NCBI GenBank assembly: GCA_012295275.1
Contig: CM022673.1
Coordinates: forward strand, 8,928,001 to 8,992,000
Length of the DNA: 64,000 bases
Reading direction: 5' to 3'
DNA from: Chrysomallon squamiferum
Lineage: Eukaryota > Animalia > Mollusca
Shown here: positions 19,161 to 50,997 of the stretch, one piece after another
How the letters are laid out: every line of letters begins with the position of its first letter
How positions within the stretch are numbered: position 1 is the first letter of the stretch
The notes under the pieces: generated by a model
What the model was told of the DNA's origin: nothing
Seen by the model: the letters and a program-made list of their open reading frames with translations, nothing else
Database searches by the model: none
Position numbers and translations under genes: made by a program

Positions 19161-21662
19161 ATGAAGGTAAACTTTTATTTCACTGTATTTCTTTCTTCAA
19201 ATGTATACATATGTATTCTTTAAACCTCGCACTTTTGTAAATTTCTATTTTTGAAAATATTAACTTTAGATCATTTACTTTCACACAATATTTATTATTA
19301 TTTGTTACTGACAAATGAGTATATAATTTCTTCATAGACAATATCAGTACTGCATTTCATCATAAATTTACATGGCAGATTGTAAGAAAGCATTAAAAAC
19401 TATAAAACCTTTCAGCGCTTGGTTGTTGTTTTTTCTCCCTTTATTACTGTGTCGCATATTTTATAGAGAGGTATGTTAAGTGAACTGAAATGATTTCTTC
19501 ATGACTCCTTTTTTTACGATTGATATAATTTCTTAACTGTTATAAATTGAAATCAATAAAAAAAAAAAATTATACAAAAAAACAAAGAGAAAACACGAAA
19601 AAACTGAAAAGTAAACTAATCGAAAAATTATTAAATAGATGAATTAAATTCACATATGTTGCCTCTTATTATTATTATTATTATTATTATTATTATTATT
19701 ATTATTATTTCCATTTTTTATTTGCTTTATTTTTCAGTTTGCAGTTGTCATTGTTGCAGTTTTCCTGCTACAATTTACAAATGCGTGGCCAGTAAGTAAC
19801 AATTTAGCTTTCACCTTAGTTTGACTTTAACTATCAGGTTTTGTTAATGCGTCTTTTATTATTATTATTATTATTATTATTATTATTATTATTATTATTA
19901 TTATTATTATTATTATTATTACTTTTTTCTTCTTTCGGCGAGTAGAGATGGTTTTGTTTGGAATATTTAGATGTTGTTGGTTGATTTTTTTCACAAGTAT
20001 CAATGAATATAATTTCCTTTTTCTTGAAAATACGTATACTAACTTTCCTAATATTAATACATACCTATATAAATAGAAAATGAAGAAATCATTTGAAACA
20101 CCAGACGGACACATGTACAAAGTACAGATGGACAGAAGTGGAAAACAGATCATTTCAAGAGATGACGAAGACGGCGAAATCACCGTTCCTTTGTACGAAC
20201 AGGTAAGTAAAATTTCAAAATTTTGTTGTTGTTGTTGTTGTTGCTACTGCTGTTGTTATCATACTGAACTTTAATGTATTGTGAGTTATTTATTACTGGC
20301 AATTATAGTTAACAATATACAGTGCACTTAAAAGTAAAACAAAAGAAGAAACGTTTTCTAGTAGCCATTACTTTTCTTGTACTTTGTACCAGAATGCTCT
20401 GCTTACAAACCAGAACACCAACTCACACGCACGCACGTACAGACACACATAAAGAGAGAGAGAATGTGTGTGTGCGTGCGTTTGTGTGCAAAGGAAACAG
20501 TAATATGTGATACAATATCTGTCTTAGAGTTTGATCATGTTACAAGCGTTTTCTGAGAGAGAGAGAGAGAGAGAGAGAGAGAGAGAGAGAGAGAGAGAGA
20601 GAGAGAGAGAGAGAGAGAGAGAGACTCATAGATGAACATATATATTTGCAGCACAAGTGGGTGGTGATTATGCGAAGTGACAATACCACGTGTTACGTCA
20701 TCGATATGACAGAGAAAGAAATCCAGGCCAAAGCTACGGTAAGTCAGTTTGTAAATTTAACACAAAAAGAAAATGTATTTTATGTAACGAATCACTCATC
20801 AAATTTTGATGTAGGTCGCCAAACGTAACATTGGTTAATGATAATACAGATACCAAAAAAGAAAAAGAGAAAGAGTGCTAATCTTTGTCTATTGGAAATA
20901 AGGGATTTGTAAGCCCACCTACCAATATTTCATTATTATTATTATTATTATTATTATTATTATTATTATTATTATTATTATTATTATTATTATTATTATT
21001 ATTATTATTATTATTATTATTATTATTATTATTATTATTATTATGTTACTTTTCAGGATCTAGACTTTGAGAAGAAGGACTATGAAATGAAGACTGGACA
21101 GGTGCAGGTTGGCGTTAAAGTAAAAGAGACTTGTGAAAAAGAAGGCGGAAAAGGCATAGACATCATCCAACTAGGACCGAAAGAACAAACAGCCGCCAAA
21201 TCCCAGGGTAAATTATGAATTAATTATTTAACTGTGAATTCAAATATTTAATTAGAATGACTTATGCTCACATAAAAGAAAAAAAAAGAAATAATAATAA
21301 TAATAATAATAATAATAATAATAATAATAATAATAATAATAATAATAATAATAATAATAATAAAATAACTAATGATAATAGTAAATAAATAAATAAATAA
21401 ACCAACATACTCCATTGTGCTGATGCATAGGTATAAACCCAAAACTCATCCATTTGTTTTCAAATAGATAAATCTTCTTTTTTTCTTTTCTTTTAAATGA
21501 TGGAATTTTCTCTGCATATGTAAGTATTTGTTTGATATTACAGGTGGAAGGATTGTCAAACGTTCGTGGTGTGTAGTAAGACGATGTACAGTAGAAAGAG
21601 TAATTATCTTGGGAGAACCCTACATCCACATCCAGTGCTGGAGCGCCATCGTATACTGTTAA
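19161..21662 (+). CDS. BRICHOS-like prepropeptide, copy 1 (180 aa); putative beta-hairpin host-defence peptide precursor
   Basis: Exons 19161-19166 (MK), 19738-19791 (FAVVIVAVFLLQFTNAWP, signal peptide), 20077-20202, 20652-20738 (..SDNTTCYVIDM..), 21057-21207 (..KETCEKEGGKGIDIIQLGP..), 21544-21662 (GRIVKR|SWCVVRRCTVERVIILGEPYIHIQCWSAIVYC*). All introns GT-AG and in phase; AATAAA at 21764-21769. Confidence 0.9.
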
Positions 21663-48278: not shown

Positions 48279-50997
48279 TTAACAGTATCTGTAGTAGTAC
48301 CAGCAGCGGATGTAAAGGTAGCTTCGACCCCAGATTATGAATCTGTAGATGTAACATCGTCTTCCTAAACACCACGAACGTTTGACAATCCTTCCACCTG
48401 CAGTAGAAAAACAAAATTCTTATCTATTTTAAAACAAATGAATGTATTTTGGGTTTATACCATACACACAATCGTACGATTTTATATGTATGTATCCGTT
48501 GCTTTATTTATTTATTTATTTATTATTTATCATTATTATTTTTCATTCGTGAGTGTGAGTCATTCTAATTAAATATTTGAATTCACAGTTAAATAATGAA
48601 TTCATAATTTACCCTGGGATAAGGCGGGTACAGTGTCTGTGTGTTCTTTCGGTCCTAGTTGGATGATGTCTATGCCTTTTCTGCCTTGTTTCTCACAAGT
48701 CTCTTTTACTTTAACGTCAACCTCCTCCTGTACAGTCTTCATTTCATAGTCGTCGGTCTCAAAGTCCAGATCCTTGAAAATAGCATAATTATAAAAAATA
48801 ATAATAATAATAATAATCATAATAATAATAATAATAACTATAATAACAACAACAATAATATTAATAATAATAACAATAATGATAACGATCAGAATAATAA
48901 TATCAATTATCATACCAACAACAACAACAGCAGCAGCAGCAGCAACAACAATAATGATAATAATAATAATAAAAATATAACTATGGGTAGGTGGGCATAA
49001 AATCCCTTACTGCTAATAGACAAAGCGTAGGCCTCTTTCTCTTTTCCTTTTTGGCTATCTGTATGGTCATTAACCAATGTTATTTTTGGCGACCTAGATC
49101 AAAATTTGATGAGTGATTCGTTACATAAAATACATTTTCTTTCTGTATTAAATTTACAAACTGACATACGGTAGCTTTGGCCTGGATTTCTTTCTCTGTC
49201 ATATCGATGACGTAACACGTGGTGTTGTCACTTGGCATAATCACCACCCACTTGCGCTGCAAATATATACATTCATCTATGAGTCTCTCCTTCTCTCTCT
49301 CAGAAAACGTTTGTAACATGATTTGACACTAACATCAGATCTTCCTTGTTCCTGTACACACACACACACACACACACACACACACACACACACACACACA
49401 CACACACACACACACACACTCTCTCTCTCTCTCTCTCTCTCTCTCTCTCTCTCTCTCTCTCTCTCTCTTTCTCTCTCTCAAGCTTTGTCTCTTTCGTTCT
49501 ATCTCTGTGTGTGAATTTGTATGTGTGTGTTTGTATGTGTGTGGTTTGTAGATATGAAGAGTTTAATTCCAAAACGCCAAAATCAAATTTAAGGAAACCA
49601 CCACCAAATTTTCAGCTTTTGACGGCTGTTCAACGCCCCATAAATATTTCCACCAGAATTCTATAGACCTTTCTTATAAAACTTTATAAACTCCAGAGCA
49701 GAAATAGTCATTTTTCTCAAATCAGGTAAAAGGGATTTATAGCGATTTGGAACCAAATTCTTTATGTAGTATTCTGGTAAAAAGTACAAGCATTTATGTT
49801 TTATCAACAACAACAACAATAATAATGATCATAATAATATTAAAACTTTTGAAATTTTACTTACCTGTTCGTACAAAGCAACGGTAATTTCGTCGTCTTC
49901 TCCATCTCTTGAAATGATCTCTTTTCCACTTCTGTCCATCTGTACTTTGTACATATGTCCGTCTGGTGTTTGAAACAACTCCGAAGATTTCTATTTATAT
50001 AAGTATGTATTAATACTAGGAAGGTTAGGCTGTGTATTTTGAAAATAACAAACCAAAGAGCATCAACAATACAAGAAAAAAAGTAAAATAAATTAAGAAA
50101 ATATAAAACATTTGTAATAAACACGCATTAACAAAATCTAATAATTAAAATCAAACTAAGCTGAAAACTAAAAAGTTACTTACAGGCAGCGCATTTGTGA
50201 ACTGTAGCAGGAAAACTGCAACAATGACAAGTGCAAACTGAAAAATAAAGCAAATAAAAAAATGGAAATAATAATAATAATAATAATAAAACAGGCGAAA
50301 TATATCAGCTTACTTCATTTATTTAATTATTTTTCGTTTAATATAGGTTTGTTCTTTTTGATATTATTTTCGTATCTGCTCTTTATTTATTTGTTTTAAT
50401 TTTATACATCCTTTTCCAAATACATTTACACTATTGACTTTAGACTGTTCAAATCTGAAAATTAAAACATTTCTGCATATAGTTTCATTCTCTTTGATAC
50501 TATTTTATTTTATTTTTCATTTTTTCATTTTTCATTTTCGTTAACTGTATTATAATTATAATTATAATGTTTTTGTTTTGTTTTCTTTTTGTTTTTGTTT
50601 TTTCGTGGGTTTGTTCTCTCAGTTTTTTTTTTTTTTTTTTTCTTTTTCAATAATGTTTGGTTATTTATTTATTTTATTTTGTTTTAAATTTCAGTTTGAA
50701 AGCGTTAATAAAATACAATAGGAGACGTCAAGAACTTGTTGTTTTAGTTCATTTAACGTAGCACTCTACAAAATATTCGAGGCAGTAAAAAAGGAAAAAT
50801 AATTTAAAAAAAAACAAAAAGCACCCGAAATCATTTTTTGTTTTTATATAAATTGAACGCTTTCTTACAATCTGCCTTAAAAATTTATAATGAAATGAAA
50901 TACTAACACTGTCTATGATAAAAAAAAAAAAGTTTAAAGTATTAATACATACATTTAAAAAGAAAAATAACAAAGTGAAATAAAAGTTTACCTTCAT
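48279..50997 (-). CDS. BRICHOS-like prepropeptide, copy 4 (183 aa); cationic mature peptide
   Basis: Exons (minus) 50997-50992 MK; 50237-50184; 49990-49865; 49256-49170; 48772-48613; 48397-48279 GRIVKR|SWCLGRRCYIYRFIIWGRSYLYIRCWYYYRYC*. ORF intact; TATA at 51083-51090; AATAAA at ~48154-48164. Confidence 0.9.
49557..49762. mobile_element. MITE-like insertion in intron 3 of copy 4, at the same site as in copy 3
   Basis: aagagtttaattccaaaacgc ... gcgatttggaaccaaattctt. Confidence 0.7.

Follow-up and report, generated by a model that had tools for sequence, protein, structure and literature searches.

The 64,000-nucleotide (nt) window of Chrysomallon squamiferum DNA analysed here (contig CM022673.1, positions 8,928,001 to 8,992,000; coordinates below count from its first letter) carries four small tandem genes, g1 to g4, whose products end in a cysteine-framed tail. 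The question raised by this locus is whether these genes encode antimicrobial peptides (AMPs) of the BRICHOS type, as had been proposed from the letters of the DNA (hereafter the sequence-only reading). The genes are a real, transcribed family, and the BRICHOS-peptide precursor design, so far polychaete-only in the reviews consulted, is seen here in a modified form in a gastropod. It is considered probable that a predicted BRICHOS-like propiece chaperones the tail and that cleavage after Lys-Arg frees a predicted disulfide hairpin for antimicrobial defence.

Gene structure, transcription and precursor layout

The genes and a broken fifth copy were located by motif scans and a self-search of the window. 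Rebuilt by coordinates, the four genes have GT..AG borders at 20/20 introns and neither frameshifts nor internal stops; exon sizes are 6, 54, 126, 87, 151 or 160, and 119 nt and the intron phases are 0,0,0,0,1 throughout, which bears out the earlier claim of four intact six-exon genes. The plus-strand gene g1 (19161..21662; exons 19161-19166, 19738-19791, 20077-20202, 20652-20738, 21057-21207, 21544-21662) encodes a precursor of 180 amino acids (aa), with a predicted 32-aa mature peptide at 21564..21659 (net charge +1, grand average of hydropathy 0.72). Three minus-strand genes encode 183 aa and a predicted 32-aa peptide each: g2 (30389..33144; exons 33144-33139, 32310-32257, 31972-31847, 31364-31278, 31034-30875, 30507-30389; peptide 30392..30487, net +1), the tail-to-tail inverted partner of g1; g3 (39278..41917; exons 41917-41912, 41156-41103, 40918-40793, 40259-40173, 39767-39608, 39396-39278; peptide 39281..39376, net +6, a predicted hairpin); and g4 (48279..50997; exons 50997-50992, 50237-50184, 49990-49865, 49256-49170, 48772-48613, 48397-48279; peptide 48282..48377, net +6), a recent g3 duplicate. 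The range first given for the cluster, 19161..50997, holds the four intact genes but omits the fifth copy of g3/g4 type (57967..58204, minus strand), which is reduced to a few final bases of exon 5, followed by intron 5 and 44 nt from the start of exon 6.

RNA data show transcription and splicing of the family. The g1 region is partly present in 11 of 13 listed sequencing runs, two of these being RNA runs from one study. RNA contigs were aligned on g3 at 90% likeness, with DNA runs X1 and X3 compared alongside; the splice-junction check suggested by the sequence-only reading comes out in its favour, as RNA spans all five g3 introns and none of the listed joints on g3 occurs in either DNA run. 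RNA run X8 shows the joints of introns 1, 2, 3 and 5, while X9 shows that of intron 3 and includes a 423-nt contig that joins exons 2-3-4-5 and reaches the first part of exon 6; this spliced contig is of g2 type, carrying g2 letters at the starts of exons 3 and 6, and one X8 contig matches the 5' end of g3 with zero differences. X8 contig depth on g3, a poor gauge of expression, is about 1,600-28,000 in the exon 3-6 bins versus 0-115 in the intron bins; most of the g3 peptide exon is not covered by any RNA contig at this likeness in the alignment to g3.

Each precursor consists of an 18-aa leader, a 130-133-aa propiece containing Cys76 and Cys117, a linker ending in Lys-Arg and the 32-aa tail. 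By inspection, the leader comprises Met-Lys and 13 mostly hydrophobic residues, with small residues at -3 and -1 before position 19; the precursors are likely secreted. The layout of signal, propiece, basic site and Cys tail in the sequence-only reading is supported, with Lys-Arg preceding a four-Cys tail in all four genes, and the motifs it quoted are present; its description of the propiece as acidic suits g2, g3 and g4 (net -4, -11 and -9) but not g1 (net 0). Across five sequences, representing about three independent lineages, a more charged tail is accompanied by a more acidic propiece, which fits charge masking.

The propiece and its likeness to BRICHOS domains

An exon-5 profile, run with HMMER in a full pass over 1.84 billion representative proteins, returns two matches. 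The first is the Gigantopelta aegis protein XP_041354458.1 (LOC121372233, "uncharacterized", 206 aa), which is 45-49% identical over the full length, shares the basic site and has the two propiece Cys 41 residues apart, as in g1-g4; it differs in its tail of 38 aa with 8 Cys and net +7, and has neither a Pfam domain nor an assigned function in the sources consulted. That tail is a further candidate peptide, and the annotated N-terminus, 12 residues longer than in g1-g4, may reflect an annotation error at the very short first exon. The second match is an unnamed 69-aa piece (P0006) covering exon 5 only; gastrokines are not among the sequence matches of the family. Second among the feature neighbours of XP_041354458.1 in the ESM Atlas comes an unnamed cluster (191 aa, 67 members) drawn mostly from Mollusca and lacking a common Pfam family; it hints at a hidden family, probably broader across molluscs, of BRICHOS-like proteins that Pfam does not see.

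The propiece is predicted to be a divergent, shortened BRICHOS-like domain, a likeness drawn from the partly independent lines of Atlas neighbours, structural matching and intron phases. In the Atlas, the structure rows ranked highest for XP_041354458.1 include clusters of gastrokine-2 (template modelling score 0.47) and ITM2, a rank-1 structural match to BRICHOS covers the expected range, and the phase pattern would arise by chance in about 1.5% of cases under typical phase frequencies. The two Cys by which BRICHOS domains are judged are present as Cys76/Cys117 in all four genes; BRICHOS Cys sites lie in strand beta-4 and helix 2 of a fold ordered as beta-1', 2', 1-4, helix 1, beta-4', helix 2 and beta-5, and the low-confidence model of XP_041354458.1 agrees in placing Cys90 in a strand (89-94) and Cys132 in a helix (125-134).

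Several results weigh against the proposed reading. The Pfam PF04089 profile matches none of eight exon translations (exon pieces rather than whole spliced proteins) and neither of two homologues at E<=10, such that the Pfam check suggested by the sequence-only reading fails. The conserved BRICHOS Asp, located 16 residues before the first Cys at the end of beta-2 (as set via the D144/C160 spacing), is Tyr in all four genes and His in XP_041354458.1, with a Glu one residue after the expected position in g1-g4; in BRICHOS domains this site is reported as Asp in 97% and Asn in 2.7%, with Glu or Ser in 0.3% of single domains. The near-neutral charge (+1) of two of the four peptides, those of g1 and g2, counts on the same side. 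The earlier BRICHOS-AMP reading is thus borne out in part: the layout of the precursor, its splicing, an origin outside annelids and the predictions of a BRICHOS-like fold and a hairpin are supported, and the phases agree with alvinellacin, but the Pfam match and the conserved Asp are lacking and two peptides are not cationic; applied to g1-g4, the term "BRICHOS-AMP" denotes a likely function rather than an established membership.

The missing Pfam match and Asp, together with a Cys-Cys spacing of 41 versus 59 in ITM2A and a Foldseek search that returned nothing at E<=0.001 with a weak model, would also be expected if the propiece were a prodomain with two cysteines and a comparable beta-sheet build but no relation to BRICHOS; even then the tail could be a defence peptide. 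This reading is considered very improbable in view of the Atlas neighbours, the rank-1 structural match and the intron phases.

The 32-aa peptide and its likely role

The tail has Cys at positions 3, 8, 25 and 32 in all four genes, and a model of the exon-6 alignment is a single hairpin (predicted local distance difference test 83; strands 9-22 and 25-38 of 39), which, as a prediction, agrees with the Cys-bridged beta-hairpin of the sequence-only reading. The predicted turn at peptide residues 16-17 has Cys8 facing Cys25 in an 18-residue ring, and Cys3 and Cys32 two residues out of register; the outer bond would therefore need a bulge. A Cys8-Cys25 bond is probably formed in the predicted register, with Cys3-Cys32 as the putative outer bond; asymmetric Cys with nested pairing have a precedent in HfBRI-25. 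The peptides are cationic in g3/g4 (Arg/Tyr/Ile-rich, isoelectric point (pI) 9.5, net +6), but not in g1/g2, which are hydrophobic (pI 7.6-7.7, net +1) with 15 of 32 residues beta-forming.

The family was compared with the polychaete BRICHOS-AMP precursors preproalvinellacin, capitellacin, the arenicins, abarenicin and HfBRI-25/-29, as presented in PMC4002450, PMC5431198, PMC6780910 and PMC10745061. Both share a dibasic site and, as predicted for g1-g4, a signal peptide, a BRICHOS-type propiece and a C-terminal Cys-closed beta-hairpin; the alvinellacin gene also has six exons with phases 0,0,0,0,1 (phases only, per the Figure S6 legend of PMC4002450) and belongs to a tandem multigene family. 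The inner ring of 18 residues resembles Cys3-Cys20 of arenicin-1 (by eye, from Table 4 of PMC6780910), and the +6 charge of g3/g4 is a further likeness. In contrast to the polychaete systems, g1-g4 have a gastropod host, a shorter, Pfam-invisible propiece without the conserved Asp, a 32-aa hairpin (as predicted) with offset outer cysteines and two nearly neutral paralogues; moreover, their peptide varies while the propiece is kept, and alvinellacin shows the opposite, with a peptide described as monomorphic across paralogues. BRICHOS-AMPs are known from polychaetes only according to PMC6780910 and PMC9756803; the present family lies outside that group, its neighbouring receptor being closest to G. 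aegis and a homologue occurring in that snail. As the sequence-only reading had supposed, no description of a molluscan BRICHOS-AMP was found in the full-text literature among the matches listed (subscription journals being mostly outside coverage); a mussel transcriptome table names one upregulated "BRICHOS domain-containing protein" without analysis.

The main rival to an antimicrobial role, considered unlikely, is a BRICHOS-like precursor with a non-antibiotic product, i.e. a mucus, matrix or epithelial-homeostasis factor as in gastrokines, Bri2 and OAF, either secreted as the whole precursor or yielding a freed beta-hairpin that self-assembles into fibres. It draws on gastrokine genes, for which PMC4199881 gives six exons and a product of 181-184 aa with a signal peptide, close to the six exons and 180-183 aa seen here; on the gastrokine-2 and ITM2 clusters in the top structure rows; and on the hydrophobic, nearly neutral, beta-forming g1/g2 peptides. 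Bri2 and OAF are reported to combine a convertase site with a nested-Cys hairpin. However, GKN1-3, ITM2/Bri2 and OAF keep the Asp/Asn site, and their cargoes are not presented as cationic antibiotics in the text available; Lys-Arg stands invariably and directly before the Cys-closed tail in the four genes and XP_041354458.1; Arg/Tyr-rich +6/+7 hairpins are typical of beta-AMPs; and the tail is wholly unlike that of G. aegis, whereas the mature part of OAF is described as highly conserved.

The rate of tail change also argues against this rival, as it exceeds that of non-coding DNA. A comparison of g1/g2 with g3/g4 shows changes at 16/32 tail residues and at 15-23 of 130-133 propiece residues (Fisher p 1.5e-5 for g2/g3). 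The fraction of differing sites is 0.28-0.33 in the DNA that codes for the peptide, versus 0.12-0.13 for the 3' untranslated region, 0.13-0.16 for the promoter and 0.13-0.14 for introns, and the peptide exon is the fastest-changing part of the family. The nonsynonymous rate (dN) of the peptide is 0.40-0.45 and the synonymous rate (dS) 0.39-0.52 (about 20 sites); dN/dS above 1 is not demonstrated because synonymous sites are raised too. Diversifying selection is the likeliest cause of the fast change, with exon-scale conversion from a more distant copy as the alternative.

An antimicrobial role for the g1-g4 peptides is likely, by analogy. Following transcription and splicing, the leader would direct the precursor to the secretory pathway; the propiece, predicted to be a shortened BRICHOS sheet with one disulfide, would hold the beta-prone tail and, being negatively charged, would balance the positive charge of the tail. 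A convertase would then cut after Lys-Arg, freeing the peptide with Cys8-Cys25 and probably Cys3-Cys32 closed. The +6 peptides of g3/g4 may permeabilise bacterial membranes as arenicin and alvinellacin do, while the +1 hydrophobic peptides of g1/g2 may act on a different range of targets or more mildly, by shaping the microbiota; alvinellacin itself is said to shape the epibionts of the worm. The locus shows a pattern of turnover through tandem duplication, in which no part changes as fast as the peptide exon.

It is further put forward, tentatively and as a finely balanced reading that falls just short of being favoured, that these are gastropod BRICHOS-chaperoned antibiotic hairpins sharing an ancestral gene with annelid arenicin/alvinellacin, with a shortened, Asp-less domain that escapes Pfam and, in vent snails, a split into cationic and near-neutral peptides that police surface or symbiotic bacteria. 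If so, BRICHOS-AMPs would date far back among lophotrochozoans as a means of defence, present in mollusc genomes but overlooked there, rather than being a polychaete speciality. A 2026 review counts no more than 25 families of natural beta-hairpin AMPs, the mollusc cases in the part consulted being mussel protein fragments, and BRICHOS-domain mining is described as the main discovery route for BRICHOS-AMPs; such mining misses this family because the Pfam model fails on it. If they prove active, the g3/g4 peptides would add beta-hairpin leads that are new and can be synthesised directly. The propiece offers a natural way to ask whether BRICHOS chaperoning works without the conserved Asp, and the cluster lends itself to the study of how defence peptides diversify, in a snail closely related to a symbiont-bearing vent species.

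The neighbouring receptor gene, cluster history and flanking elements

The 3' part of an apparently intact calcitonin-receptor-like gene (secretin family) lies at 27-9730 on the plus strand. An exon search gave four proteins of four candidates, the best being G. aegis calcitonin receptor-like at 78%, with oysters at 57-59%; the last five exons are 67-100% identical to G. aegis, and the variable C-terminal tail reaches 77-80%, against about 40% or no match for the two oyster proteins. The earlier "mollusc/cephalopod-like" attribution is accordingly right in being non-annelid, but the receptor points to a gastropod and not a cephalopod, most likely one near to yet distinct from G. aegis; G. aegis is a symbiotic deep-sea vent snail per the title of bioRxiv 10.1101/2020.09.23.308304, and this kinship suggests a vent habitat.

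As the direct neighbour of the cluster, this receptor gene raises the idea that the 32-aa peptide is a signalling ligand, e.g. calcitonin-like, or else an animal-directed, conotoxin-like toxin. Calcitonin has 32 aa and an N-terminal Cys ring, and snail toxins typically carry hypervariable Cys-framed tails. This explanation is nevertheless the least probable of those weighed and very unlikely: the peptide ends in Cys without a Gly amidation signal and is predicted to be all-beta, the variation of half its residues between paralogue groups is unlike a hormone, and the receptor pieces within the cluster (plus strand, 24710-25468, 46038-46121 and 55897-56607) are broken 3' exons inside a 9-kb duplication unit, carried along as passengers of the duplication. 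g2, g3, g4 and the fragment are spaced about 9 kb apart on the same strand, with g1 inverted relative to g2. The history of the cluster is birth-and-death turnover by tandem duplication, as indicated by the 9-kb repeats, the receptor debris, the truncated fifth copy and two orphan promoter-like remnants without coding exons (12944..13073, minus strand, and 15587-15706).

TATA-like sites lie at -93, -76, -93 and -93 from the ATG of g1 to g4 (that of g1 at 19068..19074, plus strand), and a single AATAAA occurs 102-115 nt past each stop. A perfect palindrome, which we take to be of C/EBP type, occurs upstream of g3 (42054..42061), with copies at 33264-33271 (g2), 51134-51141 (g4) and 12950-12957 (in an orphan promoter piece); in the three genes it precedes the TATA-like site by about 45 nt. 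Four are observed versus 0.71 expected, though the copies are duplicates of one site and count as one. g1 has a variant resembling a cAMP response element, shifted by one base pair, and g3/g4 also contain a kappaB-like string; C/EBP-type and kappaB-like sites together are typical of inducible defence genes. A decayed element without a Pfam match, presumably resembling the front of a Tigger/pogo-type transposase, is present in two copies (13884-14624 and 58197-58674); the copy adjoining the truncated fifth gene may have caused its loss.
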